In this document: positions 3,871-64,000 of the stretch, in pieces
How the letters are laid out: each line of letters opens with the position of its first letter
How positions within the stretch are numbered: the first letter of the stretch is position 1
From: an uncultured Acidobacteriota bacterium
GTDB lineage: Bacteria > Acidobacteriota > UBA6911
Length of the DNA: 64,000 nucleotides
Reading direction: 5' to 3'
NCBI GenBank assembly: GCA_963843575.1
Contig: CAWJKZ010000026.1
Coordinates: 64,001 to 128,000 of the forward strand
Program-made: the position numbers and the translations under genes
The notes under the pieces: model-generated
The model's input: the letters and a program-made list of their open reading frames with translations, nothing else
What the model was told of the DNA's origin: nothing
Database searches by the model: none

Positions 3871-5868
3871 TCAGGGTTCTGTGTTCTTGGACAGACGTTC
3901 GAGCTGCGCGGACACGAAGGGACTGGGTTCGAGCGACAGCGCCCGCTCGAAGGCCTCGCGGGCCTCGCGGTACCGGCCCAGGTGCAGACAGAGCGTGCCG
4001 ATGTTCGCGTGTGCGGGGGCGAAATCGGGGTTGATCGCGGCGGCCCGCCGGAATTCGACGAGCGCCTCCTGCAGGTGAACCGGGCCGAGCTTTACCGCGA
4101 GCAGCCCGAGTGTAAAGTGGTTGCGGAAAGACTCCGGGTGCTCGCTCGCGTTGACCGCCATCTCGGCGCGGAAAAGCGAGAGTGTGTCCGGGTCGCGGGC
4201 CAGCGGCTCGAGGTAGGCCGAAACCTGCATCGGCTGTACCGTCCTGATTTCGCTCTCCAGCACGGCGTCGTTTCTGCCGTTGCGTCGCACGTAGATCGCG
4301 ACCACGTCGTCGAAATAGACCAGCGCCCATTCGGCGCGGGGGAAAGCAAGGGTGTCGAGGCTGTCTTCCGGTCTCGCAGGGGGTTGTTCGGGGTAGCGCA
4401 CGACGGCGTAGTCGATCCCGTACTTCTCAACGAGGTCCCGCCAATTCTTGCGTGAGTCGAATGCGTGCACGTACTCGGACAAGATCCCAGGCCCCAGGTA
4501 GACGTCCTCGCGCCCGTCTATGAACACCTTGTGGTCGGGCCCGAGCCTCCAGATCAGGTATCCTCCGATCCCATACGTGTTGAACATGTGCCCGCGGATG
4601 CCGGACGCCTCCAGGAAATCGACCCCGCTCACCGCAAAGACCCCCGAGTGCACCCCGACCCCGAACCTGTAAAAGTACGTCTGGCTCTCGAGCTGCACCA
4701 CCCGGGCAATTAGCAGCGTTGCCGCAAGGGCGGGGACCCACGCCCGGATACGCCCGAGCCATCGGCCCTGGCTCAGGTGCCATGCCAATGTGGGGGCGAG
4801 GAGAAAGACTAGGAGGGGGCGAAAACGGAAAAAGACCAGGGTCAAGGCGAGCAGCAGTGGGAGCAGGAGCCATTCGTAGAGCCGGACGCGCCGCGGCCGC
4901 AGGGCGAAAAACAGGGCCAGGAGGGCCGCGAACACGAGGTAGAGCACGATGGAGAGGTCGACCCCGGCGCGGATCGTCGAGGCCAGGGACTGGAATTCTT
5001 TGTTGTCGAGCGGGCTCTCGGTGCGCAGCAGGCCGTAGAACAGCGCTTTGTAGCCGTGCGGATTCAGGAAGGACGCCGCGACCACGCCCGCAAGCGCCGC
5101 CGCGTGTGGGGCCAGGGCTCTCGAGCCGGCCCGGGAGACTCCACCCGCGGCCGGGCGCCGCTCCCAGGCGCAGTCGAGCAGGAGCGCGCCGGCTAGCGCC
5201 CACCCGAGCAGTGCCGTCCCTCCGTGAAGGTTCACCCACAGCAACTGGGCCGCGGGAAGGAGGGCAAGGAGCCCCGGTTTCACGGCACTCTTCTCGCAGA
5301 CCAGGAGGAACAACGCCGCCAGCGGGATCGAAAGCAGTTCCGGCCGTTCGGTGAAGCGCATGCGCGAGACCGCATATGCGGCCGCGAGCACCAGAAGCGT
5401 GGCGCCGGGCAGGGCCCTCCGGAGGCGCGCGGTCCAGGCAGTCAAGCCGAGCAGCAACGCGACGAGCAAGGCCTTGCCCGCGACGATCGCGGCCGTCCCG
5501 CCGGCCCGGTACGCCCAGTAGGAGATGAGCCCGAAAAGCCACTCGTGCGAAACCCAGGGCTGGCCTGCTGCGGTGTAGGAAAACGGGTCCAGGCGCGGTA
5601 TCGCGCGGTTTTGCAGGATCCAGGCCCCGGTCTTGAGATGCCACCAGAGGTCCAGAGATCGGATGTCACAGAAGGAGATGACGGCGGCGCAGGCGAGCAG
5701 CGGGGCCAGATAGGGCCAGAATCGGATCCCCGTGGGCGCGGCGGGCCCGATCAGGAAATTCGAGGCCCCTGAGCCCCCGCGGCCGGCGCGCGGCGACGCG
5801 GGGTGGCCGGTCCGGCCCCTGCGCCCCGCCTGCCCGGACGCCAGGCGCGCCCCCCGGGGAGCTGTCAC
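3871..5868 (-). CDS. GT-C-like polytopic membrane protein with C-terminal TPR repeats
   Basis: Motifs 'DLWWHLKTG', 'DPFSYT...W..HEWLF', 'LWVNLHGG', 'GGYLIW' and 'VFIDGR', then TPRs ('AAAINPDFAPAHANIG...EAREAFERALSLEP'). Start overlaps the top6A stop (GTGA). Confidence 0.7.
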   Translation of the reverse strand: MTAPRGARLASGQAGRRGRTGHPASPRAGRGGSGASNFLIGPAAPTGIRFWPYLAPLLACAAVISFCDIRSLDLWWHLKTGAWILQNRAIPRLDPFSYTAAGQPWVSHEWLFGLISYWAYRAGGTAAIVAGKALLVALLLGLTAWTARLRRALPGATLLVLAAAYAVSRMRFTERPELLSIPLAALFLLVCEKSAVKPGLLALLPAAQLLWVNLHGGTALLGWALAGALLLDCAWERRPAAGGVSRAGSRALAPHAAALAGVVAASFLNPHGYKALFYGLLRTESPLDNKEFQSLASTIRAGVDLSIVLYLVFAALLALFFALRPRRVRLYEWLLLPLLLALTLVFFRFRPLLVFLLAPTLAWHLSQGRWLGRIRAWVPALAATLLIARVVQLESQTYFYRFGVGVHSGVFAVSGVDFLEASGIRGHMFNTYGIGGYLIWRLGPDHKVFIDGREDVYLGPGILSEYVHAFDSRKNWRDLVEKYGIDYAVVRYPEQPPARPEDSLDTLAFPRAEWALVYFDDVVAIYVRRNGRNDAVLESEIRTVQPMQVSAYLEPLARDPDTLSLFRAEMAVNASEHPESFRNHFTLGLLAVKLGPVHLQEALVEFRRAAAINPDFAPAHANIGTLCLHLGRYREAREAFERALSLEPSPFVSAQLERLSKNTEP

Positions 5869-6992
5869 GGCAGGAACCGCTCCGGGTGGCGGAGCTTCTC
5901 CGGGAGATATGTGTCGATAACGTAATTCAGGCCGTGCTTGGCCAGTGCCTGCTGCTCGGCGCGCACGCCCATTTTGAGTAGTTGCTCCATGGCGTGAATC
6001 CAGGCCTCGTGGTGCCGGATGAAGGGATCGTTCTTGATCGCGTCGCGCGCGCGTTTGACGTCGACATCCTTGAGCGGATGGGTCGGCAGCTTGTAGTCGA
6101 CGATGTCCTGCGGCGTGATGCCGAGGAACGACGCCTGGGGCACGCAGAAGAACTCGTTCAGGTGTGCGGCGTTCCCGGATCCGACCTTCAGCGTCCGGTA
6201 GATGTTAGTGATGCCGTAGGGATCGCCGTCCACGAAAACGTACACCGGGATCTTCTTGAAATCGGCCAGCCGTCGTATGAACCGCCGGCAGGCACGGGTC
6301 GGGACGCCCCCCATGCTGACGAGAATGCAGTTGGCCTTTTTCCAGTAGTTGTGTTTCACGAGCCGCTGGAACATCCCGGCGGTTTCGATGACGAGGATGA
6401 AACTCGCCGAGGTCTCGAACTGGAGACTCTCGACGGAGATGGGAACGCTGTAGGCCCCGGAGCCGAACTTGGTGCAGTCGATGCGCAGCATCTTCCCGGT
6501 GTCCCGGTCGCGATCGAGCACGATGAGACGTCCTGCGACGTCGCCCCCCTTCTCCTCGGGTATGAATCCAAGCTGCTCGCGGTTCACGGCGAAAAAGGCC
6601 TCGACGTCGTCCATCACGGTGTCGGATTCGGGCTGCTCGTTGAAGCGCGCGTCCTCCCAGTTCTTGGAGACGTAGTACGCCTCTCTCTTGGTGGCGATGT
6701 CGTCGTTGGCGACCAGCTCTTTCGAGAGCGCCATCATCCGGAGGGTCTGCGCGAAGGTCTTGACGGTGTTGACCGTCAGGGTGCGCTCTTTCTTCTGGCC
6801 GGCGATCTCGAAAAAGCCGCGCTGAGGCGTGTACCGCACGTTGGTCAGCGAGCGGACAGGGAACTTCATGGTCGGTTTTTTGCGCGCCATGATTTTTCTG
6901 TGGATCTCGGCGGCGGATGCGTCGATGGCCGACAACACCTTCCTGCTGGCGGCGCTGGCGGCTTCGGATTTGCTGCTCTTCTTGCCGGGCAT
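5865..6992 (-). CDS. top6A: DNA topoisomerase VI subunit A (Spo11-like)
   Basis: Catalytic Tyr region 'TKREAYY', 'FNEQPESDTVMDDVE', TOPRIM 'VIETAGMF' and 'FVDGDPYG', and 'AEQQAL'. Confidence 0.95.
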   Translation of the reverse strand: MPGKKSSKSEAASAASRKVLSAIDASAAEIHRKIMARKKPTMKFPVRSLTNVRYTPQRGFFEIAGQKKERTLTVNTVKTFAQTLRMMALSKELVANDDIATKREAYYVSKNWEDARFNEQPESDTVMDDVEAFFAVNREQLGFIPEEKGGDVAGRLIVLDRDRDTGKMLRIDCTKFGSGAYSVPISVESLQFETSASFILVIETAGMFQRLVKHNYWKKANCILVSMGGVPTRACRRFIRRLADFKKIPVYVFVDGDPYGITNIYRTLKVGSGNAAHLNEFFCVPQASFLGITPQDIVDYKLPTHPLKDVDVKRARDAIKNDPFIRHHEAWIHAMEQLLKMGVRAEQQALAKHGLNYVIDTYLPEKLRHPERFLP

Positions 6993-6995
6993 GGG

Positions 6996-8735
6996 CTACT
7001 CCTGCACCGCGTCCTTGGACCGGCTCCGTTCCAGGACGTCTTTCAGGGTGATCACCAGATCTGCCTCCGCCTTCTGCGACAACCCGAGGATCTCGCGCAG
7101 CGCGATGCCGATGTGGGGGATGTACTTCTCGATGTAGGAGCGCTTCTTGTCCTCGTCGACCGCCCTGCGGTGGGCGCGGATGTGCGACGCCAGCTTGCGT
7201 CCGCAGTCCTGCAGCGCCAGGCGCAGCTCCCTCATGATCTCCGGGTAGGCGGCGATCGCCTCCTTGCTCTCGGAGGTGAACGGAACCCAGACCGACGCGA
7301 TGTGGACGAATAGCACCAGCGGTCCCTGCGGCAATGCCCCCTTGGACTGGGACAGCCCGTAGCCGCGCCAGTCCACTCCGAGGACCGACTTTCGTGATCG
7401 CGCAGGCCGCCTGCTGGTACTGCAGCGGGACCCGGTTGGCGAAACGGAGCAGGTCGACGAGTTCGTCGGAGGGTAGCTTCCCGCCGTAGGCCATCCCGAT
7501 CTCCACCTGGAACGGATTGCCCCGGTAGACGGAAGGGGCGCGGGTGATGGCGGTGAAGAAGGCGGCGTCGATCTCCTTTTTCAGCCCTGCCATGAGCTGC
7601 TCCTCGCCGATGGGCGAGAGGCAGTTCGTCGGCGGGCTCATGATCTTTACCGCGCTGATCGCCTTGTAGAGCCGCTCCGCTTCGCTCACCGCGATGGCGT
7701 GCGGGTTGGAGTTCGGTTTCAGCTCCGCCGCCGCGCAGATCTCCAGCGCGACGCGGCTGCTGACACGCGAGAAATCGCGCTGCAGCGCCACGCGCGAGCT
7801 GACGGGCGGTGGTCTCCTTCATCATCTTGATCAGGGCCCCGAGCTCGACGCCGTACGGGTGGGGTTTGATCTGCCGCGGTTCGGGCGGGAGGGTGTCGGA
7901 GCCCCGCGGGAAATGCAGGCTCCCCGCGCCGCCCGGGAAAGAGTAGATAAATCTCGCAGTGCGGGTTGGCGATGGCGGTCTGCCGTATGTAGTCGTCGAT
8001 CGAATGCCGCCCTTTCTTGTAGGTGCCGACGAGCTCGATCTCGACCCGCGTGCCGTGCGGCGGCTCCCACTCCACGACGCTGTCGTTCAGCACCTGCGGG
8101 ATGTTCTTCCTCGTGTCGATCTGGATTTCGTAGTAGTGGGCCGGCTTGTCCGGCGCCGGTGCGCGAGGTCACGACGATCGACTTGCCCGTCGTGAGCAGG
8201 CCGTACATCCCGGCGGCCGAGATGCCGATCCCCTGCTGCCCCCGCGCCTGCTTCAGCGTGTGGAATTTCGACCCGTAGAGCAGCTTGCCGAAGATCTTCG
8301 GGATCTGTGCCTTGACGATGCCCGGCCCGTTGTCCTCGACGGCGATGCGGAACCGGTCCTCGGCGAGCTGCCGGATCTCCACCTTCAGGACCGGGAGTAT
8401 GCCGGCCTCCTCGCAGGCGTCGAGCGAGTTGTCCACCGCTTCCTTGATCGCCGTGAGCAGCGCCTTCTGCGGGTTGTCGAATCCGAGCAGGTGGCGGTTC
8501 TTGGTGAAGAACTCCGATACCGAGATCTCGCGCTGACGCGCGCCATGCTTTCGGCCGTTTCGCGGCGCGAGATGCGGGGGGCGTCTCCGGCAGGCGGGGC
8601 TGCCGCCTCCGGAACCCGGGGGGTGTCCCGTTTCTCTGTGGTTTTTTGTGGCGGCGGGTCCATCAGGCTCAGTTGGTGCGGTACATCGTGATCGGCCCTG
8701 CCGGGGAGGGTGGCTGGCTTGATTCTGGGCGGAAT
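6996..8735 (-). CDS. top6B: DNA topoisomerase VI subunit B (GHKL ATPase + H2TH + transducer); several frameshifts; start at ATT 8735 or ATG 8663
   Basis: Fragments across frames: '[20 protein letters not shown]', '[18 protein letters not shown]', 'VEDNGPGI', 'LLYGSKFH...RGQQGIGIS', 'LRFANRVPL' and '[12 protein letters not shown]'. Confidence 0.92.
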
Positions 8736-8856
8736 ACGGATACTCCTCCTTCCACTGCGATGCGGGTTGAACCCCAAATAATAGGGGATCCCCCGAACCA
8801 ATGCAATCGAACCCGGGCGCTCAGGCGCAGGTCAGGGTGGAGATCGATCCCTGGAG

Positions 8857-11800
8857 TCAGGGGATCGTGACTACCGGGATGGTGGCGAACACGTCTGCCA
8901 GGTAGTTGTCGTAGCGCAACGCCACACCGGCCACCGGGACACCGGACTCGACCTCGAGGGTGCCTTGGAACTCCGGAAAGGAATCGGGGAACCACTCGGT
9001 GAAGAACTTTGCGACGTGACCGAGCGGGGGCACGAGGATGCTGGCGGAAGCGACGATCTCCCCGGCGGCATTGCGCAGGCGCAGCGCCAGCCTCGTGGCG
9101 CCGGCCGCCGGATTACAGATGGCCAGGCCGGATTCCGTGTAGCCGAGACTCTCCACGTAACTCGTGAAGCGGGGCACTGCCGGGGACGCCGCCACCCCGG
9201 CCTGCGACACGATCCTGCCTCCCGAGACCACCTGAAAGATCGACGAACCTCCGATGGGTACGCCGGAGGTCACCCGGACCCAACCGGTCACGGCACTCGC
9301 CGAGGCGCCGCCTGTCGCGAACGTGAACACCCCGTCCCGGGGGATGGAGACCTCGTGCCTCGTCTTCAAGACGCCCCCGACGCTGATTCCCAGCGGTTCG
9401 CCGCTGTGCGAGAAGAACTCGATGCGCGCTTGCGCCGTGGACGCAGAGGGGTTCATCAGGATGAAGGTGGAACGGTAGCCGCCGCCGTCCGCGATCTGCG
9501 GGAAGTAGAGCTCGGTCGCGGCCTCGTCGGCCAGTACCGGGATGGTGGAAAAAGCGTCCTGCTCCGGGTTGTCGTAGCGCAGTGCCACGGCCCAAAGCGG
9601 CTGGTCGGCATCGAACTCGAGCGACCCTTCGAAGTCCTTCAGATCCGCGGCGAATCTCTGGAAAACGAATTCCGCAATGTGCTGCCTCGCCGCCAGGGTG
9701 AGGCTGCGCGGCGCCCCGAAGGCCGAGCCGTCCGAACGACGGAGTGTCAACCGCACGTTCGCGGGGATCGTCCCGGGGTTTGCGACGGCGTAGCCGGAGA
9801 ATGCGTCCCCGGTGTTGTCGACGTAGATGCGGAAGGATCGAGCCGCTTTCGACGCTCCGACCCCGGCCTCGCTCGAGACCCGATCTCCCGTGATTTTCCT
9901 GAACAGGACGCCCCCTCCGCCCGGGCTGGTCGTAAGCAGACGGGCGTAACCGGTCAGGGTGTTATCCCTCGAGCCGGACCGGAGCCGGGCGGAGCCGAGG
10001 CCAGGGAGCGGAAGGGTAATCGTAGTTCCCGGGCGGCTGAATGTGCTTGCGGAGATCGGCCCACCCGACGAGTCGGCAAGATGCACCTGGGCCGGCGACT
10101 CCGCAGCGGTGGGATTGATGGCTATGATGGAGGACTCGTAGGCGCCACCGATCGCGATCTGTGGGAACACGGCGGCGGAAGCGAGCAGCGATGCCGGAAG
10201 ATACTCGTACGCCCCGATGTCCGGCACGGGCGAGCCGTCCACGTCACCGTCGACGTTGCGAGGGATCCCGTCGCCGTCGCGGACGGGCGCATCCTCCGCC
10301 CGGGGGTCGGCCCGGTCTATCGCTGCCGACCCGGGCTGGAGATGGAAGTCGTCGCCAGCCGGATCGGAAAACCCGGGATTGCCCTGAATGTTGCCGTTTT
10401 GTGCGGCGAAGGTCCCGGTTTCGACGACCGAGTTTTTCACGACGACGGTTCCAGCTGTGCTGTCGACCGCCACATCTCCGCCGGCATTGCCGGAGAGGAT
10501 CGAGTTCGCGACCCGGGCGGACGCCCTGTCGTACACGCCCAGTCCAGCGCCGCCGTTGAGGGCGACGACGCAGTTCACCAGGTTCACCGTGCTGCCGGGA
10601 CCCGTTGCCCGGAGGCCGTACGCGCTTCCCGCGCCCCCGGTGCTGCGATACACGGAAGTGTTGATCAGCGTTGCGGTCCCGGAGGCGACGTGCACGACCG
10701 GCGACCCGCCGCGTATCCTGAGGCCCTCGACGCGCGCGGTCTCGGCCGCGAGCGAGAGGGCGGGCAAGTTGTCGGCAGCGGACCCGTCCAGGACCGGGCT
10801 TTGACCGGCAACGGCCCGGATGGTCAAGTTCTTGCCCGTGATGGACACTGTTTCCCGATAGGTCCCGCTGTCGCGGATCTCGATGGTGTCTCCCGAACGC
10901 GCTGCCGTCACCGCCTCGGCCACGCTGGAGTAACGCGCCCCTCCGGACTTGGCGACGGTGATGGGCTCACGGGCCGCGATCCGCACGTCGAACGATCCGA
11001 ACTTGGCGTAATTCCAGGTCGTGTGACGACGCGCGCGTAGGAAGTGCCTGCCGGAGGAAGGAGCCGTCCATTGAATGCGCGCGCCGGTCGCGGCGTTCGA
11101 CGCATCGGTCGACGCGAGCACCTCCGCGCCGTCGCCGGAGAGGACGTCGACGACCACTGCCCCGCCATTTGCGAGGTTGACAGTCTCGATCAGGTACTCG
11201 GTTCCCGCCGTGGTGTTGAATCCGACATAGTCGACGTCGGCTACGGGATAGAACGTGTGGTGCAGTTCCCCGGCCCCAAAGTTGTAGGTTCCGAGCGACG
11301 GATTCTGAGCGCGCCAGTCGGATGCCGAATCGGTGGCCGGCAGAGTTATCGGGCGCGCCAGAGTCTTGCCCGCCGGTGGGGAGGCGGGATTGACCCCAGG
11401 GAAATCGCGGCCATCCGGTGGGACGTCCTTGGACCGTCCCCAACGCACGAAATCCCTGGTCCTGCCCGTGCCGTCGACGAGGGCGCAGGAACCCTCCTCG
11501 TCGTTGGCCCAGGAGACATTTGTCTCGAAATACAGCGTCGTCGGCGAGTTGACTCCCGAAGTCTCCGAGAGCACGACAAAGGCCCCGGGCGCGAGCCTGA
11601 ACGACGGGATCTCGAACACGGCGGGGTCGTATCCCTTGGCCAATGCCCGCACCGTCCAACCCGAGAGGTCGGCTTCTTCGCTGCCGGCGTTGTAGAGCTC
11701 GACCGCATCCAGGCGGCCCAGGTCGATCTCGCTGATCAGGACCTTGACGCCGCTCTCGAGCGCCGGGATGTGTCCGACGCCGGCCAACGCCGCACCCGCC

Positions 11801-55085: not shown

Positions 55086-56720
55086 CTACCTCTGATTGGT
55101 GAATACAACGGTGACTTTCCCCTGACTGGCAACGTTGCTTCCGCCGAGGGTTGCCGGCTTGAAACGCCACTTCCTGACGGCGTCCTCCGCCGCGGCATGA
55201 AAGAGTTGCGGCCCGCTGATGGGCTTCGCCTTGGTCACTCGGCCTTGCGCGTCAATTTCAATTTCAAGGTCTACCGTGCCCGAGATGTTTCTCTTGCGGG
55301 CGATGTCCGGGAAAACCGGCAGCACCCTCGACAAAAGCACAGCCTGCGTGCCCGACGGGTTTGCCGCCGGCACTCCGCTGGAAGGGGAGGCGGTTGGAAG
55401 CCGGGGTGCCGGCGCCGCCGCAGGCAGGGAAGTTGAGGTGGGAGACGGGAGGTTTGCGGCGGTCGATGTGGCGGGGGGCCCCGGTGCGGGGTCGGTCGGT
55501 TCTTCCGCTGCCGGTCGTGTGTCCGCTGCGGCGTGCTCTCCCTGCAGCCCCACCGAACCGGCCGGCGCTTGCGTTACCTGGGGATCATCCGCCGCCGGAG
55601 CCGCTGCCGGTGCGACCGGGGGTGGCGCAGTCGGCGTCACTTGCCGGATTTCATCCGGTGGACGCGTTCTGGGCGCACCTGCCTCGTTGAGCGCACGCGC
55701 TGGTGGGCTGGAGTCGTTGCCGGACCTGCGGGTCTTCGTGGCGGCTCCTGGCTCAGGCTCTATCGCTTCCTGGGACGGCTGTTTTGCCGCGGCAGTCACC
55801 TCGGGTGCCTGCGGTCCGTTGTCGACGGCCGACGCGGGGAGGGCCGGGGGGGTCGTTTCCTCTGCTGGACCTTCGGCGGGTACCGCAGACGCTCCGGTCG
55901 GACTTGGCGCACTCCTGGGGCGCGGCCTGAACAGGAAATACAGCAGGATGGCGGTGATCACCAGGTAAACGATGATCCCCACCCTTATCAGGATCTTCCG
56001 TCGGGAGTGCTCGGGTTGCGTGTTCAGGGTCCAAAGCGGCCTTTCATATTCGTCAGCCACTTCCCGGACGCCGTCCTGGACGGCCGCGGGAGTCTCCTCT
56101 GACGCCGGCGTGACGGCGATCGCCGAGGCGTTGAACGATGGATCAATGAGGGCGCTGCCCGGGTCGTCGGCATCGACCGTTGCCTGGGTAAGAGAGGCGT
56201 CGGGTTGCGCGAGTGCGGGCCCGGGGACTTCGAGGGGTTCCGGCGTGGCCGTGGGTACTTCCGGGACCACGGGTGCCGGTTCCTCCGCGTCCACCGCCGA
56301 GAGCTGTTCCAGGTCGTCGATTGTATGGGCGATGCTCTCGTCCAAATCGTTCGCGGGTCGAATGAACGGCAGTGGAGCCGTGTCCGGAGACTGCGAGGCC
56401 GTTGAGGGTGGCGGGTCGGTCCGGGCCGTGGCGTCGTCCACGGCGGCTGGTATGGCTGCCGCCAGTCCCGTCAGGTGCGCGCTGACGTCCGTTTCCGGGC
56501 TCAACTCGGAAAGCAGCGCGTCCACCTGCTCTGTCGACGTCTCGTGGGATGACTCGTATTCCGCCGTAACCGAGTTGGCGTGCTCCAAAAAGTTGAAGAC
56601 GAGCCTGTCCAACTCATCCGGCCGATCCGTGGGGGGGTCTCCAACCGGGAGCGCGGCGCCATCGGCCGCATCGTCATGCGTCTGGTCCGAATGGAGAATC
56701 TTCTTCGGGTCGCTGCTCAC
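55086..56720 (-). CDS. TonB C-terminal-domain protein with long acidic cytoplasmic N-terminus
   Basis: Acidic N-region, single TM 'ILIRVGIIVYLVITAILLYFLF', Pro/Ala linker and 'P.FP..A....ISGTV...ID..G.V...AA..AV.KW.F.PA'. Confidence 0.8.
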   Translation of the reverse strand: MSSDPKKILHSDQTHDDAADGAALPVGDPPTDRPDELDRLVFNFLEHANSVTAEYESSHETSTEQVDALLSELSPETDVSAHLTGLAAAIPAAVDDATARTDPPPSTASQSPDTAPLPFIRPANDLDESIAHTIDDLEQLSAVDAEEPAPVVPEVPTATPEPLEVPGPALAQPDASLTQATVDADDPGSALIDPSFNASAIAVTPASEETPAAVQDGVREVADEYERPLWTLNTQPEHSRRKILIRVGIIVYLVITAILLYFLFRPRPRSAPSPTGASAVPAEGPAEETTPPALPASAVDNGPQAPEVTAAAKQPSQEAIEPEPGAATKTRRSGNDSSPPARALNEAGAPRTRPPDEIRQVTPTAPPPVAPAAAPAADDPQVTQAPAGSVGLQGEHAAADTRPAAEEPTDPAPGPPATSTAANLPSPTSTSLPAAAPAPRLPTASPSSGVPAANPSGTQAVLLSRVLPVFPDIARKRNISGTVDLEIEIDAQGRVTKAKPISGPQLFHAAAEDAVRKWRFKPATLGGSNVASQGKVTVVFTNQR

Positions 56721-57064
56721 GACATTGACCTCATACTGCAGGACGACGGGGTCGCAGAGAAATCGACGGGCGGAAGCCGTGCGGCCGGCCAACACTGTCC
56801 AGTTCGGTATGATACCTTACTCTAGCAGAAGCCCTCAACATAGACAAGCCGCCCCCGACCCTAGCCTGCACATTGTAACAGTTGTCTTTACGAGACACAG
56901 CCCGCAGGTGAATCTCCTGCGTCGGCCGCCCCGTTCTGTTCGCTCCGATGGCCGTAACGCCTACAAGATCTTATCGGCGCCCTCGGGGAATTTATTCCGG
57001 TCGAACTATCTGAGCCTCGGGTGACCTCTGGCCTGCAAGTCGCGTGTTCGCGTCGGGTCGGTTG

Positions 57065-57080
57065 TGGTACGCCCCTTGCT
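57065..57080 (+). promoter_or_regulatory. Sigma54 (-24/-12) promoter upstream of the hemerythrin gene
   Basis: TGGTACGCCCCTTGCT fits TGGCACG-N4-TTGCW with exact GG-N10-GC spacing, about 40 bp before the ATG. Confidence 0.6.
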
Positions 57081-57117
57081 TCAGGGATTGCGACACATCG
57101 AGCCGGAGGTGCTTCTG

Positions 57118-57625
57118 ATGGTTATAAAGAACAGGACGAATACCAGGCCCAACCGATCCGCCAGAAAAGATGCCATTGCCATGTTTGAAGGAGGACCACA
57201 AACGCGTGCAGTATCTCCTGGGAAAGCTCGAAGCGTCCTCGGGCCGCGCTTCAAAATCGCGGGACTCCCTGTTAGCGCGAGTCGAGCGGAAGTGAAAACG
57301 CACGCCACGTTGGAAGATGAGATCTTCTACCCCGCCTACAAAGAAGCGGTGCGCAAGAAAGAGGATCAGAAGCTCTACTTCGAGGCGGCAGAGGAGCACC
57401 ACGTCGCGGACGTGGTCATGGCGGAGTTCCAGGATCAATCCCGATTCGGAATCGTTTGCGGCAAAATGCAAGGTTCTGAAGGACTTGGTCGAGCACCATA
57501 TACGGGAGGAAGAACGTGAGATGTTCCCGGTGGCCCGGAAGACCCTTGGCTCGGATCGCTTGCAGGAGCTTGGCAAGCGCATCGAAGAGCGCAAAGAGGA
57601 ACTCATGGCCGAGAGCGGTCGATGA
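57118..57625 (+). CDS. Hemerythrin-like (HHE) cation-binding protein; frameshifts near 57185 and 57435
   Basis: 'EDHKRV', 'HATLEDEIFYPA', 'EEHH' and 'HHIREEEREMFP'; GGAGGT RBS. Confidence 0.85.
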
Positions 57626-57655
57626 TCCGCTGACGGTCTGTGGCCCATGGGGCCT

Positions 57656-60600
57656 ATGAAGTCGCCCACGAGGAAAACGGCACTGCTGATCACGGCTGCC
57701 GTGGCGCTACTGGTCGCGCTCACCGTTGCCTTACTGCGGACGCCTCTTGTCGTGCGCCTGGCGATGGAGCGCGCGCAGGCGTATCTGCACGACAACTACG
57801 GCATCGACCTCAGCGCCGGACACGCGGACATCGACGTGGCGCGGGGAACTCTCTGGATGCGGGACGTCCTGGCGAAATCCGCCGCGTATCCCGATCTCCC
57901 GGCGATTCTCCGAGTCGACGACGCCTCGGTCAACTTCAGCGTCTTCGACCTGCTCCGAGGGAGGATACACGTTCAATCCGCTCGTCTCACGGGACTGGCA
58001 TTGAACGTCGTTGTCGCGCCGGATGGGCGCAACAACCTGCCGAGCATTGAGCAGCGCGCGCCCTTTCGCGGCTTGCCTCCATTCGTTGTGGATTCGCTCA
58101 CCGTCGAGCGGGCATCGCTCTCCGTGGACGACAGGCAGAAGGACCGGGCCCTCGAGTTGCCGGAGTGGTCGCTGCGCATAATGGGCACGTCGCAACCACT
58201 TGCCCACGAACTCCGCATGAGGTTGCTGCGGGCAGGGATCGTCCGTGCCGAGGCTCGTACCGTCTCGATTGAGCAGTTTGACGCGGTCGCTGCCGTTTCC
58301 AGGACCGACGTGCAGACCTCGACGATCGCGGTGCGTATCGGCGGTTCCTCGCTGCAGATGCGCGGCGCAGTCCGCGACCTCGGGGATCCCGTGCTCGACC
58401 TCTCTTTCGACTCCGTACTGGACCTGCCGGCGCTCAGTCGTCTTGCTCAGACCCCTGAGCAGGTAGGGGGGACATTGCGGGTGAGCGGCCGAGTTGCCGG
58501 AAAGCCGAGTGCCCTCGTGGTTTCAGGCCACGCTCGAGGGGATGGAATCTCAACCGCCGGGTATGACCGGGTCCGCCTCGAGACGGACTATCGCTTTCGT
58601 TCCGGCGACCCTCGTTTGGAGATTGAAAACCTCGACATCTTCTCCCCTTACGGCAGGGTGCAGGCACGCGGCGCGGCGGCTCTTACTCCGGAGCTGCGGA
58701 GTTCGATAGAAGGTCGCATCGAAGACTGGGATCTGGCCCCTCTGGGCCGGTTCCTCGACAAATCCGTGCGGGTTGCCAGCCGCGCAACCGCGAGGTTTGC
58801 GGTGTCGTGGTCCGGTATGGAGGTGGCAAGCGTGTCGGGGTTTGGGCGGCTGCAGCTTGTGCCGAACCGGCAGGCGGCGGCTCGAGGTCTCCTGCCTCTC
58901 GGCGGGGCTGTCGTCGTCCGAGCCCGACCTGGCCAGATCGACGCCACCCTGGAGGCGTTGAGTTTGTTGGGAGCCAGGATTTCCGGTTCGGCCACGTTGC
59001 GCGACGGAAGCCGGATATCCGGCGAAATCACAGGGGATGTCGCTGCCGTGGACCGCTTCCAGGACCAGCTCCAGTCACTCCTGGGAAGGCCCGGCGCTTT
59101 GCTACCCATTCAACTTGCCGGAAGGGCGGCTGTTTCTGCGCGTTTGGCGGGCACCATGTCGGCGCCGTCGGCCGAAGGAACAATTGAGTCTTCCGATCTG
59201 GCATTCGGCCGACTGCGCAACCTGGCTCTGACGGCCCACGCCTACCTTGATCCAGCCCGGCTCTTGATCCGGGATGCCGTGGCGAACATGGGCGGCCAGG
59301 TGCTCCGTATCGCCGGAACTGTCGGATTCGGCGGGAGGGACCCGGTGCTGGACCTCGAGGCTGCTCTGGAGCGTGGATCCATAGTTGCGCTTCTGGCTGC
59401 GGCAGACCTCGACGTTCCTATGAACGGGACGATCGAGGCCCGTGCCCGCGTGGCCGGCCCACTTGGTCAACTGCAGGGGGACGCACACGTTTCGGCGACG
59501 GGGCTGGTGGTCGGGGGGGAAACGCTGGGAACTTTCGGTTTGGATGCCATCCTGGGTGCGGGAACTCTCCGGACGACAAGGGCCGTGCTACAGAAAACCG
59601 CGGGAGACGAAGCCGCCGGTTACATGACCGCCGACGCTTCCTACGACGTCGAATCAGGGATATTTGCCTTCAACGCCGCGGCGCGGGAGTTTTGGCTTCC
59701 GCAGAGACTGCCTGTTGGCGGTAGCATCTCAGGCACTGCTGCGGGCCAGGGCACAGTGCAGGATCCCGTGATCGATCTCAAACTCGAGATCCCGGACATG
59801 TCGGTTCGGGGGGAGAGCGTCGGGAACGCGAGTTTGACCGCGGCGCTCCGGGGAGACGACGGCGAGGTGCGTGCGGAGTTGCCCCGTCTCAACCTGTCCG
59901 CAAACGGTAAGGTCCAGGCGCGTTCCCCGTTCCCGGCCGAGCTGCACGTCGAAGCCCGGGACCTCGACTTGTCGCTGCTCAGGCTCCCGGTTGCCGACGG
60001 TCAGGTACTGGCCGGCCGCATCGACGCTGCCGCAACGGGGACGGCAAACCTAAAAGAATGGAAGGCGGGGGAGGTTTCCGTTGTGGTCAGGAAAGCCAAC
60101 TTGGTTGCGCGTTCCCGGGAACTGCGCAACGACGGCCCAGTACAGGCCCGATATCAGCGAGGCACGTTGGAGATCGACGAGGCTCGTCTCGTGACGGAGT
60201 CGTCCTCCCTGGTTGTCGCCGGCACGATTGCACTCGACCGCGAGGCCCCCCGCAGCAAGCTCACGTTGAAAGGAGCACTCGAGATCGGGGACCTGCAACC
60301 GTTTTTCGAATCTCCTCCCGGTTTCTTCGCGTCCGGCTTGTTGAAATTCGACATGGCGCTGGAGGGAACCCCAGCGGAGATCGGAGCTTCCGGTGGTTTC
60401 TCCATGTCCGACGGCTTTCTGCATGTGCCCCAGATCCGACTGCCACTCACCGATATCGCGATCGATGGGAGTCTGGGCGACGGCGCGGTGCAGGTGCGAT
60501 CGGCCGAATCGCTGTGGGGCGCAGGGCGGATTACATACGCCGGCGAGATTCCGCTTGGGCTGCTCCCGAGAATGCCGTTTCGCTTCGAGCGGAAGCAGGG

Positions 60601-63600
60601 GGCGGCGCGCTTCGAGCTGACCTTCAGCAATCCCCGGCTCGAAGCGACCGAGGAGCTGCCGGCAGGCGTAGGGGGATCCCTCGACCTGCAGGTGCGCGGG
60701 GAACTCGGGCGTCCGGACCTGGAGTCACTCCGCGCCGTCGCGACAAGCAACAGGCTTCAGCTGACCGCCGGAGAGCTGGTCTTCGAACAACCACGCCCTG
60801 CCACGATCACGGTCCGGGACGGAACCGTGCGGGTTGACAACTTCGCACTCCAGGGTCCGGGTAGCCGCGTCGCGGTGAGCGGCACCGCGGGCCTGCTCGG
60901 CGAGCATCCGCTCGACCTGCGTGTCGATGGGGACGTGGATGCAGGGATCTTTTCGGTCTTCTCCAGCGATCTGCGGCTCACCGGCACTACCCGCCTCGAG
61001 GTGGCCGTGAAAGGCACCACGAGTGCCCCCGCGGTGTCAGGATTCGCGCAGCTTCAGGACGGAGAAGCCAGCGTCCGGTCTCTCCGGCTCGGTGCGGACG
61101 ATCTGAACGTCAAGCTGGGCTTCGCCGGGAACCGCATGACGGTCCAGACTCTCGCGGGTACCCTGAACGGCGGGACCCTGAGCGGCACTGGGACTCTCGA
61201 CTACAAGGGGACCACTCTTACCGGCTTGAACCTTGGCGCCCGGCTCGACGGCGTGTACGTCGGTTACCCCGAAGGGTTGCGCGCCATTGTCAACGGTAAC
61301 CTGAACATCAAGAGCACGGAAAGCCCCATCGTGGTCGGCGGGACGATCCTGGTGCAGGAGGGGTCGTATACCGAGCCCTCCCAGGCGGGGGGACTGTTCG
61401 GCGCCCTCAGTTCGAAGCAGGTCCTGGATGTCAGCCAGAAGCGAGACCCAGTCCTGTCGCGGATTCGCTACAACGTCGCGGTGCGTACGGTCGACCCCGT
61501 CTCGGTCTCCACCGGCATGGCAAAGCTTGCGGCCAGCGGCAATCTCCGGCTGGTCGGGACCTACTACAACCCTTCCATCGTGGGTCGGGCGACTTTCGAC
61601 GAAGGGGGCGAACTCCGGCTGAACGAGAGACAATACGTGCTCGATCAGGGGTCGATCAGCTTCGTCAACGAAAACCGCATTGAGCCGGTGCTTGATATCG
61701 AGGGCCGGACCGAGGTGGCCGGCTACGATATCAACCTCGCATTGACCGGAACGCCGGAGAACCCGAAAACCGCCTTGACCTCCGACCCACCCTTGCCGGA
61801 ACCGGACATCCTCTCACTCCTCCTCACCGGCCGGACCCAGGAGGAGTTTCGCGGCGAGGAGCTGGAGTTTGCCAAGGAACAGGCACTTTCGCTTGTGGCG
61901 GGGGAGGCGGGCGCCCGGATATCCCAGGGTGCGCAACGAGTCCTGGGGCTCAGTACGGTGCGGATCGAGCCCAACCTCATCTCGCCCGAATCGGATCCCG
62001 GCGCCAGGTTGACGGTAGGACAGAATCTCACCAACGATCTGCGGCTCATATATTCCATGAACCTAGTCAACAGCAACGACCAGATCTGGATCGGGGAGTA
62101 CGACGTGACGCGCCGCTTCGTCACCCGCGCGCTCAAACAGCAGGACAACAGCTACAGGTTCGAATTCCAGCACGATCTGCGCTTCGGCGGATCCGCCTCC
62201 ACCGGAAGGGTGCGACGATTCGACCGCACCAAGCGCGAAGTCGGCACCGTGTCGTTCAAGGGGGGAACGGCCCTGGGCGAGAAACGGCTGCAATCCAGGC
62301 TGAACTTCAAGAGCGGGGACCGTTATGACTTCACCAAAGTTCAGAAAGCGAGGGAAGATCTGAGGGGCTACTTCGCCTCGGAGGGGCGGCTCGAGTCAAA
62401 AGTCTCGGTCAGCAGGAGCGGGGAAGACGGCAAGGTCGACCTGGCCTTTGCCGTGACGCCGGGACCGCGGGTCCGCTTCTTCTTCGACGGGGATCCCGCA
62501 CCGCGCGGTGCGGCCGAGAAGGTCGCCAGCGTCTGGAGCGACGGTGTTTTCGATCTGCAGCGTGTTCAGGATGCGGTGCAAGCCATACGCCGCTCCCTGA
62601 TCGCCGAAGGGTATCTGCAGTCCGACGTCCGTTACCGCATAGAGCAGGAGGGAGAGGCGAAGGATGTCCACTTCACCATCCGACGGGGTGCGACGTTTCA
62701 CGACGTCCAACTCGTCTTCAGCGGGAACTCGGACGTCGAGTCGGCGGAACTGCGGCACCAGATCGTCGCGGCGAAGCTGGAGAACGCGGTCTACAACGAT
62801 CCGTCCCAAGTTGTCGACCTGCTGGCGAACTATTACCGAACCCAGGGCTACACTCACGCCAAGGTGGAGTCGCCGAAACTGGACTTGAACCCGTCGACGG
62901 GCTCCGGACGTGTCGAGATCCCGATCAAGGAGGGTCCCCGGTTCAGGATAGGGCAGGTCGTTTTCCAGGGAAACACCCTCTCCGACGATACCCTCAGGCG
63001 AGCCTCGGCTCTCGGCACCGGGACCATTTTCGCCGCGAGGGAGGTTGACGGTGCCCTGGAACGGATCGACCGCTTCTATCACAGCCGCGGGTATAACGAT
63101 GCGACCTTCGACTACGAAACCCTGCTCGACGACAGCACCGGTCTTGCCGAAGTGCGGTTCCGGATCGAGGAGCGACGACGGACCGTGATCCAGAGCATCG
63201 TGGTGCAAGGTAATGAACGGACCCCGACCTCGTTCGTGCGCAAACAGTTGAGCATCTCGGAAGGGGAAATTCTCGATCCCGAGGCGATCGCTCGTTCCCG
63301 CCGGGCGCTCTACGATACCGGGGTGTTCACTCTGGTCGATTTCGACACGCAACCAGCCGATGCCGTTTCACCGGCGGGAAACACGAAACGGGTGGACATC
63401 ACGGTCAAGCTGCGCGAGGTCAAACCGTACCGTTTCCGTTATGGGGGATTCTACGATACCGACCGCGGCGCTGGTTTCACGGGGGACATCTCCAACCGCA
63501 ATTTTCTCGGGCGCGCCGCCGTCGTCGGGCTGCACACGCGCTACGACGGAACGATGAAGGAGGCCCGCACCTATTTCGGGCAGCCGTTCACATTCGGCAT

Positions 63601-64000
63601 TCCGCTACAGACCAATGTCACGGCGTTCGTCCAGCGGGAGTCGCGCCCGGCCTACACCCTCGACAGGGTCGGCGCTTCCCTGGTCCAGGAAAAACAACTG
63701 CACGACCGCTATATCCTGAACTATGGCTACCGGTATGAACGGGTCAAGGCTCCGCAGGGCTTACCCGACCCCCTGCTCCGATTCACGAGCATGGTGCCGC
63801 TGGCACGCCTGACTGCGAGCATCACGGGGGATACGCGCGATGACATGCTCGACGCCACCCGCGGCTCGTTTCACTCGCAGGCCCTCGAGTACGCACCGGG
63901 GCTGCTCGGCGGGGATGCCCGCTTCGTGAAGTACTTCGGCCAGTATTTCCGCTACGTGCCCTTGAGCCGTCCTCAGAGGTTGTCCTCAGGCCGCGTCGTG
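57656..64000 (+). CDS. TamB (AsmA-like/DUF490)-POTRA-Omp85 fusion protein of at least 2115 aa; runs off the window end
   Basis: One open frame, not listed in the ORF track because it has no stop. Signal-anchor 'MKSPTRKTALLITAAVALLVALTVALL'; DUF490 'LTSDPPLPEPDILSLLLTG' (~61770-61830) and 'RLIYSMNL...FEFQHDLRFGG' (~62040-62190); about 5 POTRA (62240-63420); barrel 'YGGFYDTD...NRNFLGRA' and 'DTRDDMLDATRG'. Confidence 0.88.
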   Translation, partial: MKSPTRKTALLITAAVALLVALTVALLRTPLVVRLAMERAQAYLHDNYGIDLSAGHADIDVARGTLWMRDVLAKSAAYPDLPAILRVDDASVNFSVFDLLRGRIHVQSARLTGLALNVVVAPDGRNNLPSIEQRAPFRGLPPFVVDSLTVERASLSVDDRQKDRALELPEWSLRIMGTSQPLAHELRMRLLRAGIVRAEARTVSIEQFDAVAAVSRTDVQTSTIAVRIGGSSLQMRGAVRDLGDPVLDLSFDSVLDLPALSRLAQTPEQVGGTLRVSGRVAGKPSALVVSGHARGDGISTAGYDRVRLETDYRFRSGDPRLEIENLDIFSPYGRVQARGAAALTPELRSSIEGRIEDWDLAPLGRFLDKSVRVASRATARFAVSWSGMEVASVSGFGRLQLVPNRQAAARGLLPLGGAVVVRARPGQIDATLEALSLLGARISGSATLRDGSRISGEITGDVAAVDRFQDQLQSLLGRPGALLPIQLAGRAAVSARLAGTMSAPSAEGTIESSDLAFGRLRNLALTAHAYLDPARLLIRDAVANMGGQVLRIAGTVGFGGRDPVLDLEAALERGSIVALLAAADLDVPMNGTIEARARVAGPLGQLQGDAHVSATGLVVGGETLGTFGLDAILGAGTLRTTRAVLQKTAGDEAAGYMTADASYDVESGIFAFNAAAREFWLPQRLPVGGSISGTAAGQGTVQDPVIDLKLEIPDMSVRGESVGNASLTAALRGDDGEVRAELPRLNLSANGKVQARSPFPAELHVEARDLDLSLLRLPVADGQVLAGRIDAAATGTANLKEWKAGEVSVVVRKANLVARSRELRNDGPVQARYQRGTLEIDEARLVTESSSLVVAGTIALDREAPRSKLTLKGALEIGDLQPFFESPPGFFASGLLKFDMALEGTPAEIGASGGFSMSDGFLHVPQIRLPLTDIAIDGSLGDGAVQVRSAESLWGAGRITYAGEIPLGLLPRMPFRFERKQGAARFELTFSNPRLEATEELPAGVGGSLDLQVRGELGRPDLESLRAVATSNRLQLTAGELVFEQPRPATITVRDGTVRVDNFALQGPGSRVAVSGTAGLLGEHPLDLRVDGDVDAGIFSVFSSDLRLTGTTRLEVAVKGTTSAPAVSGFAQLQDGEASVRSLRLGADDLNVKLGFAGNRMTVQTLAGTLNGGTLSGTGTLDYKGTTLTGLNLGARLDGVYVGYPEGLRAIVNGNLNIKSTESPIVVGGTILVQEGSYTEPSQAGGLFGALSSKQVLDVSQKRDPVLSRIRYNVAVRTVDPVSVSTGMAKLAASGNLRLVGTYYNPSIVGRATFDEGGELRLNERQYVLDQGSISFVNENRIEPVLDIEGRTEVAGYDINLALTGTPENPKTALTSDPPLPEPDILSLLLTGRTQEEFRGEELEFAKEQALSLVAGEAGARISQGAQRVLGLSTVRIEPNLISPESDPGARLTVGQNLTNDLRLIYSMNLVNSNDQIWIGEYDVTRRFVTRALKQQDNSYRFEFQHDLRFGGSASTGRVRRFDRTKREVGTVSFKGGTALGEKRLQSRLNFKSGDRYDFTKVQKAREDLRGYFASEGRLESKVSVSRSGEDGKVDLAFAVTPGPRVRFFFDGDPAPRGAAEKVASVWSDGVFDLQRVQDAVQAIRRSLIAEGYLQSDVRYRIEQEGEAKDVHFTIRRGATFHDVQLVFSGNSDVESAELRHQIVAAKLENAVYNDPSQVVDLLANYYRTQGYTHAKVESPKLDLNPSTGSGRVEIPIKEGPRFRIGQVVFQGNTLSDDTLRRASALGTGTIFAAREVDGALERIDRFYHSRGYNDATFDYETLLDDSTGLAEVRFRIEERRRTVIQSIVVQGNERTPTSFVRKQLSISEGEILDPEAIARSRRALYDTGVFTLVDFDTQPADAVSPAGNTKRVDITVKLREVKPYRFRYGGFYDTDRGAGFTGDISNRNFLGRAAVVGLHTRYDGTMKEARTYFGQPFTFGIPLQTNVTAFVQRESRPAYTLDRVGASLVQEKQLHDRYILNYGYRYERVKAPQGLPDPLLRFTSMVPLARLTASITGDTRDDMLDATRGSFHSQALEYAPGLLGGDARFVKYFGQYFRYVPLSRPQRLSSGRVV

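Follow-up and report, generated by a model that had tools for sequence, protein, structure and literature searches.

The window analysed here, a 64,000-nt stretch of DNA from an uncultured Acidobacteriota bacterium (lineage UBA6911; assembly GCA_963843575.1, contig CAWJKZ010000026.1, positions 64,001 to 128,000), ends within a gene whose product runs without interruption from a TamB-type bridge protein into a BamA-like member of the Omp85 family. We consider it probable, at roughly 70%, that this is a genuine, conserved gene, a paralogue in which the two partners are covalently joined as a single-chain module resembling TAM (translocation and assembly module). A preliminary description, made from the letters of the window, had claimed a TamB-POTRA-Omp85 architecture in one chain, and the reading frame, the Pfam domains and the relatives confirm it. 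Thus, two partners that are normally separate appear to be hard-wired in one envelope-spanning chain, in a soil-type Acidobacteriota genome.

The fusion is encoded by one stop-free frame, 57647..64000 (+), with 2,118 codons in the window and an open 3′ end, which bears out the earlier figure of at least 2,115 codons. On the parent contig, the frame extends 426 nt beyond the window, to a stop at window-equivalent 64424-64426, and the complete protein has 2,259 amino acids (aa), with the C-terminal sequence ...FFSIGQAY. The start had been placed at 57656. This is the second in-frame ATG of the open reading frame (ORF), after a first at 57647, and it is the one used by the stored database copy of the protein, since that copy is 2,256 aa long. 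No clear ribosome-binding site was seen upstream of ATG 57647 or ATG 57656, and either may be the start.

The claimed DUF490 and Omp85 domains are both found by a Pfam scan of the window part of the protein, well above the cut-offs. The TamB domain (DUF490, PF04357) has its envelope at 61157..62137 (+), residues 1171-1497, with 112.9 bits against a cut-off of 22.4 (E 2.8e-32) and 116.2 bits in the genome search. POTRA (PF07244) scores 155.1 bits over four stretches (E 7.7e-46), and Omp85 (PF01103) scores 53.3 bits on a barrel that is incomplete owing to the window end. Toward the N-terminus, the Pfam matches fall under their cut-offs (DUF748, 48.6 against 50 bits; AsmA, 15.7 against 29.8; YhdP, also below), and a comparison of the TamB half with the PDB sequences gave no match at E<=0.01.

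The Omp85 half is of the BamA type. The whole of it passes the NCBIfam BamA model (TIGR03303) with 311.8 against 297.15 bits, while the version limited by the window reaches 242.5; the canonical BamA of the same genome scores 492.7 bits. It fails the NCBIfam TamA model (NF047950), at 108.4 against 625 bits, and has five POTRA domains where the TamA definition has three. The loop-6 motif of BamA is defined as (V/I)RG(F/Y), and the barrel of the fusion has TTMRGF at residues 2152-2157. This motif (R2155, G2156) and the aromatic C-terminus of the barrel lie past the window end. The R and G are invariant in all 90 aligned homologues, and the C-terminal residue is F or Y in 120 of the 123 full-length homologues. 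In two respects the chain departs from the definitions of its own families. A BamA has its own cleavable signal peptide, and here there is no start, stop or hydrophobic segment ahead of POTRA1; a TamB has a free C-terminus, and here the end of the docking strands continues via an 18-aa linker into POTRA1.

The layout of the chain was examined in two AlphaFold2 models built from 42-row alignments, one of residues 1-1169 (mean predicted local distance difference test score, pLDDT, 87.4) and one of residues 1100-2259 (mean pLDDT 79.4; predicted template modelling score 0.64). The first begins with a predicted transmembrane helix, presumably a signal-anchor, at 57665..57736 (+), residues 7-30, followed by a second helix at residues 33-51. 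The best Kyte-Doolittle 19-mer of the N-terminal helix is 2.79, and the best beyond residue 150 is 1.47. The signal-anchor proposed earlier is thereby upheld as a hydrophobic helix, which would retain the chain in the membrane, and so is the proposal that the junction brings no new signal peptide, there being no second hydrophobic segment after residue 150. Beta-strands then follow nearly unbroken for about 1,330 aa, from about residue 53 to about residue 1380 (57803..61786 (+)), as a predicted TamB/AsmA-like groove. In the Foldseek search, the N-terminal model has low-TM (template modelling score) matches only, including the LPD-3 bridge protein and the beta-belt of ApoB100; a TamB chain is absent among the matches listed.

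In the second model, the TamB half closes with a terminal segment at 61799..62191 (+), delimited by DSSP and the alignment consensus: three helices (residues 1385-1433) and then six strands (residues 1437-1513), with the conserved end ...YRFEF-HDLRFGG. The linker, SASTGRVRRFDRTKREVG, occupies 62192..62245 (+), residues 1516-1533, and is predicted to be disordered, with pLDDT below 50. On the DNA, the junction reads from ...RFGG (62180-62191) through the linker to TVSF, the start of POTRA1 (62246), with no stop; the linker sequence quoted in the preliminary description is present, and it is stop-free as stated. Five beta-alpha-alpha-beta-beta POTRA units follow at 62246..63418 (+) (residues 1534-1604, 1608-1679, 1686-1761, 1767-1841 and 1845-1924; Pfam, DSSP and Foldseek), in agreement with the earlier count of about five. 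The last element is the 16-strand Omp85 barrel of residues 1928-2259, whose first 191 residues are in the window (63428..64000 (+)). The top Foldseek match of this C-terminal model is full-length E. coli BamA, over about 815 columns (E 4e-44).

The junction is widely conserved. A query of 401 aa (residues 1300-1700) was run through whole genomes. Among the 40 other genomes of the relatives set, 13 match it end to end, in frame and with no stop, including an independent assembly of the same genus (86% identity, a frame of 2,264 aa) and a relative from a different family of the same class. The query is matched at all by 36 genomes of the set, counting the unpublished G034, which matches with the TamB part only. 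A stop with a ribosome-binding site or signal peptide at the junction, which the preliminary description had named as the mark of two separate genes, is seen in no relative. At the scale of the phylum, 55 of 401 sampled Acidobacteriota genomes match at E<=1e-40, across 26 anonymised families; the sample includes the present genome, and the unpublished G185 is among the positives (54 of 400 without it). The junction is spanned at 55 of the 56 places found in this sample, the exception abutting a contig end. None of the 56 has an internal stop, and frames of at least 2,000 aa are found at 50 of them. At each of 19 diverse loci, one uninterrupted frame runs from stop to stop, over 2,120-2,450 aa.

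A profile of the junction, compared with 1.84 billion cluster representatives (50% identity), found 1,600 proteins at E<=1e-30, and each of the best 150 representatives matches across the junction. A separate, word-indexed search gave at least 120 matches; nearly all of those listed have 2,200-2,400 aa and combine PF04357, PF07244 and PF01103, and the named carriers among them are metagenome-assembled genomes (MAGs) of Bryobacteraceae, Bryobacterales or Acidobacteria. Hundreds of database copies bear automatic names, either 'TamB domain-containing protein' or 'BamA/YaeT'. In the ESM Atlas, Acidobacteriota is the commonest phylum among clusters with the three domains, with few records, and a search for related loci returned two, in an Acidobacteriota MAG and a Bryobacteraceae MAG.

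Could the fusion be an artefact, produced when a sequencing or assembly indel deleted the stop between adjacent tamB and Omp85 genes? The assembly does have frame breaks, in a separate TamB gene on contig 24. However, the same in-frame junction recurs in the independent same-genus assembly, in another 54 genomes of the phylum sample and in no fewer than 150 clusters formed at 50% identity. Furthermore, 122 of the 123 full-length homologues have no signal peptide or hydrophobic segment ahead of POTRA1, only one having a segment comparable to the N-terminal one elsewhere in the chain; in the absence of an export signal, a separately translated Omp85 could not be exported. An assembly artefact is therefore rejected on the conservation of the junction in the relatives, the phylum sample and the cluster representatives, and we regard it as vanishingly improbable. 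Sequencing runs were also consulted. The 14 runs listed as containing the sequence have shares of 0.17 or less, with no RNA run among them. Four runs compared with the stretch gave contigs of 151-270 nt only, which leave most of it uncovered. A contig from run X7, 151 nt long, agrees with 62165-62315 at every position and includes the whole linker, with no indel; it has only 27 letters on the TamB side and is not counted as independent support for the junction.

The linker is 15-20 aa long in 84 of 90 aligned homologues, and its sequence is variable. Arg, Lys, Pro and Ser are abundant in it in most homologues, and no residue of it is conserved across the 90. These properties bear on whether the chain stays whole. 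It may be that the protein is a polyprotein that is exported whole and that a periplasmic protease then splits within the linker, giving TamB-like and BamA-like proteins that associate. A disordered linker of this composition would be accessible to proteases, and the C-terminus of TamB is free in all studied systems described in the sources available to us. On the other hand, the lack of any conserved linker residue leaves no recognisable cleavage motif, and the constant length fits a geometric tether better than a disposable spacer. The combination of conserved length and unconserved sequence thus speaks mildly against cleavage, and we consider a polyprotein rather unlikely.

From these observations, we infer a topology, a docking arrangement, an intact chain and a substrate for the fusion as follows. 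The chain would be exported by Sec and kept in the inner membrane by its N-terminal helix, and the approximately 1,330 residues of beta-groove would cross the periplasm. As in E. coli TamAB, the six terminal strands of the TamB half would then dock with an Omp85 barrel, against its strand 1 and inside its lumen; the simplest partner would be the barrel of the same chain. From where the last TamB strand ends, on the periplasmic side, the linker of 15-20 aa would return to POTRA1. The canonical BamA would insert the barrel of the fusion into the outer membrane. The module would most likely transport phospholipids from the inner to the outer membrane, the activity proposed for TamAB, and nascent outer-membrane proteins may be a further cargo; the fusion would make a 1:1 partnership of TamB and Omp85 permanent. 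The conserved anchor and the C-terminal barrel agree with the earlier proposal of one chain tethering the two membranes, which we retain as a probable arrangement. We doubt the description of the chain as a 'self-contained' conduit: inserting the barrel would require a canonical BamA, and the genome has kept one.

In an Omp85 barrel, strand 1 begins at the periplasmic face. For E. coli TamAB, the last strand of TamB (residues 1251-1259, the end of the chain) is reported to hydrogen-bond strand 1 of TamA, with strands 3-6 in the barrel lumen (PMC12800296). Crosslinks between TamA 267 and TamB 1258 and between TamA 269 and TamB 1256 (PMC12800296) indicate that the pairing is antiparallel. Given this orientation and the periplasmic start of strand 1, the C-terminus of TamB would be at the periplasmic rim, and it is therefore topologically possible for the chain to continue into periplasmic POTRA domains. 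The view in the preliminary description that TamB and TamA interact through POTRA domains is incomplete, since the key contact is that of the C-terminal strands of TamB in or against the TamA barrel (PMC12800296, PMC13119328). DUF490 has been described as an Omp85-docking domain, and the hybrid barrel as the stable functional state (PMC13119328). In the models, the fusion retains the helices, the six strands and the conserved aromatic last strand of this docking arrangement, to which a tether of constrained length is added. It is tempting to propose an uncleaved chain that works wholly in cis, with an inner-membrane anchor, a lipid groove, a barrel occupied by its own six strands and a tether looping from the rim to POTRA1. 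We hold this fuller picture tentatively, at somewhat less than even odds.

Several observations weigh against a single-chain TAM-like module. The TamB half scores 65.6 bits on the NCBIfam TamB equivalog (NF047952), for which the cut-off is 825, and is therefore divergent. The strong N-terminal hydrophobic segment, present as a 19-mer in 108 of 123 full-length homologues, is missing in the other 15, most of which look like miscalled starts. The fusion was not found with the junction query in 346 of the 401 genomes of the phylum, so it is dispensable. The relative G008 carries the gene in three frames, with the breaks away from the junction, which reflects either a pseudogene or assembly indels. 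On docking, a predicted complex of the TamB end with the Omp85 part scored 0.60, against 0.00 for the best of three controls; this is graded as weak support in its favour, and no contacts were returned. In this prediction, the runs agree in at least 70% of contacts, with a partner pLDDT of at least 58. The weak-support mark is reached by 58 of 80 solved complexes and by 2 of 110 mismatched pairs; only 7 of the 58 passing solved complexes, and both passing mismatches, scored no higher than 0.60. The pass may also reflect likeness to solved structures of TamAB and of BAM (beta-barrel assembly machinery).

As to details of these genomes, the locus of G008 (L006, G008:C22:246840-251042) is broken roughly 40 nt ahead of the junction match and again roughly 720 nt past it, with the junction itself in frame. 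In the phylum sample, several families that are well sampled and include complete genomes have no match at E<=1e-40 (for example 0 of 25, 0 of 15, 0 of 7 and 0 of 7).

The docking partner need not be the fusion's own barrel. In an intact chain, the TamB strands could instead enter another Omp85 barrel, that of a second fusion copy or of a second BamA; the barrel of the same chain would then do no more than anchor it in the outer membrane or work as an insertase in its own right, and the result could be chains or oligomers. The linker is short, and POTRA1, to which it leads, is the POTRA furthest from the barrel in BamA-type proteins. In addition, two more full Omp85 proteins, besides the fusion, are present in each genome that was looked at closely. 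Against this, a fusion normally fixes a 1:1 partnership in cis. The same-chain complex score, as weak support, cannot separate cis from trans. We regard docking in trans as unlikely, and continue with an uncleaved chain docked in cis as the tentatively preferred arrangement.

The genome has three full Omp85 genes: the canonical BamA (878 aa, five POTRA domains), a second BamA on contig 24 (931 aa, at least six POTRA domains, 353.7 bits on the BamA model) and the fusion. It has two TamB domains, one in the fusion and one in a separate TamB that lies immediately downstream of the second BamA. Five other well-assembled carriers each have the fusion and two separate Omp85 genes, with 3-4 full-length Omp85 proteins per genome. 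The fusion thus adds to the other Omp85 genes and replaces none of them. Its Omp85 half is nearest to the second BamA (26.6% identity, E 2.5e-56) and more distant from the canonical BamA (20.7%, E 9e-31), and its TamB end has 26.5% identity with the separate TamB over 449 aa.

The separate TamB on contig 24 (L015:4656-9045) is split into three overlapping frames, 4656-5870, 6024-8231 and 7453-9045, with PF04357 only on the last. In relatives, it is a single frame of about 1,300-1,400 aa, and the split reflects either assembly indels or a decaying gene.

As to origin, a tree of 720 aa of Omp85 (30 rows, leaving out L048 and L050 for their long branches) places 16 of 20 fused rows in one clade, with a Shimodaira-Hasegawa-like approximate likelihood ratio test (SH-aLRT) value of 95. 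The remaining four fall in an unresolved comb together with separate BamAs. A tree of the barrel alone (32 rows) has long branches and poor resolution. The approximately unbiased test does not reject a clade uniting all 20 fused rows (p 0.245); a single origin of the fusion is therefore allowed, not shown. One genome, G386, has two fused paralogues on separate contigs, with frames of 2,218 and 2,396 aa (L017 and L030), which sit in different parts of the Omp85 tree.

The neighbouring genes look unrelated. Upstream, an ORF of 569 aa with a C-terminal TonB_C domain (59.5 bits) lies on the other strand (55086-56795 (-)) and points away from the fusion. Immediately ahead of the fusion comes a pair of ORFs that overlap in different frames, 57064-57519 (+) and 57317-57625 (+), and that may represent a single gene interrupted by a frame break. 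A Hemerythrin match in the first is weak and under the cut-off, and the pair stops 21 nt ahead of the first ATG of the fusion. Downstream are an M20 peptidase and a URO-D gene.

A natural fusion of TamB and Omp85 was not found described in the open-access literature, supplements not covered. The available parts of PMC4494059, PMC12800296, PMC13382580, PMC13119328, PMC11014939 and PMC4827864 contain no description of one, and the words 'fusion' and 'fused' are absent from the main text of Heinz et al. 2015 (PMC4494059) and from a 2024 review, as far as these were accessible. The patchy spread in the phylum may explain the silence of studies on cultured Acidobacteria.

What, then, does the fusion add? 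A fusion that occurs naturally and is widespread constitutes evolutionary evidence, of the 'Rosetta-stone' kind, for an obligate 1:1 unit of TamB and a BamA-type Omp85. There is a dispute over how AsmA-like bridges are anchored at the outer membrane and over whether the hybrid barrel is a transient or a permanent state (PMC12800296 versus PMC13119328), and the fusion would bear on the hybrid-barrel model as independent evidence. It suggests that the TamB end can work without a free C-terminus, and it would fix the topology, in that the last TamB strand must end on the periplasmic side. It also supplies a single chain of fixed stoichiometry, ready for use in structural and reconstitution studies. 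Its biogenesis is a puzzle, since a chain of 245 kDa anchored in the inner membrane must have its C-terminal barrel folded into the outer membrane. If the chain is indeed uncleaved and docked in cis, it would be the first described with integral domains of both membrane types, and natural proof of a permanent TamB-Omp85 hybrid barrel that needs no free TamB C-terminus. BAM would then fold a barrel while the chain's own upstream segment threads into it.

A close counterpart is the TAM of E. coli, which has the elements predicted here for the fusion: an inner-membrane-anchored TamB, a beta-groove, DUF490 helices with six strands, and a partner with POTRA domains and a 16-strand Omp85 barrel. There, however, the two are separate proteins, whereas the fusion is one polypeptide, TamB and then Omp85, in which the C-terminus of TamB is not free. 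In addition, the E. coli partner is TamA, while the Omp85 part of the fusion has five POTRA domains and scores as a BamA. A single polypeptide in both the inner and the outer membrane is known in VirB10 of type IV secretion, whose outer-membrane part is alpha-helical. VirB10 is unrelated to the fusion in family and function, and the outer-membrane part of the fusion is a predicted 16-strand beta-barrel.

Borrelia burgdorferi and further phyla without TamA pair TamB with a BamA-type Omp85 that has five POTRA domains (PMC13382580), as in the fusion, and modelling of the Borrelia proteins has the C-terminal strands of TamB completing the BamA barrel (PMC13382580). Unlike the fusion, these are separate proteins, and BamA is sole and essential, whereas the fusion coexists with a canonical and a second BamA. 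In chloroplasts, TIC236, a TamB homologue anchored in the inner envelope, is likewise linked to an outer-envelope Omp85 channel, TOC75 (10.1101/2021.04.25.441383). These two are also separate proteins, and they act in protein import. The nearest comparison by phylum is the acidobacterial operon of a second BamA and TamB (Heinz et al. 2015, PMC4494059), which is also present in this genome. In the operon, two genes are arranged as Omp85 and then TamB, and in the fusion the order is reversed. Therefore, the fusion is not a simple read-through of the present operon.

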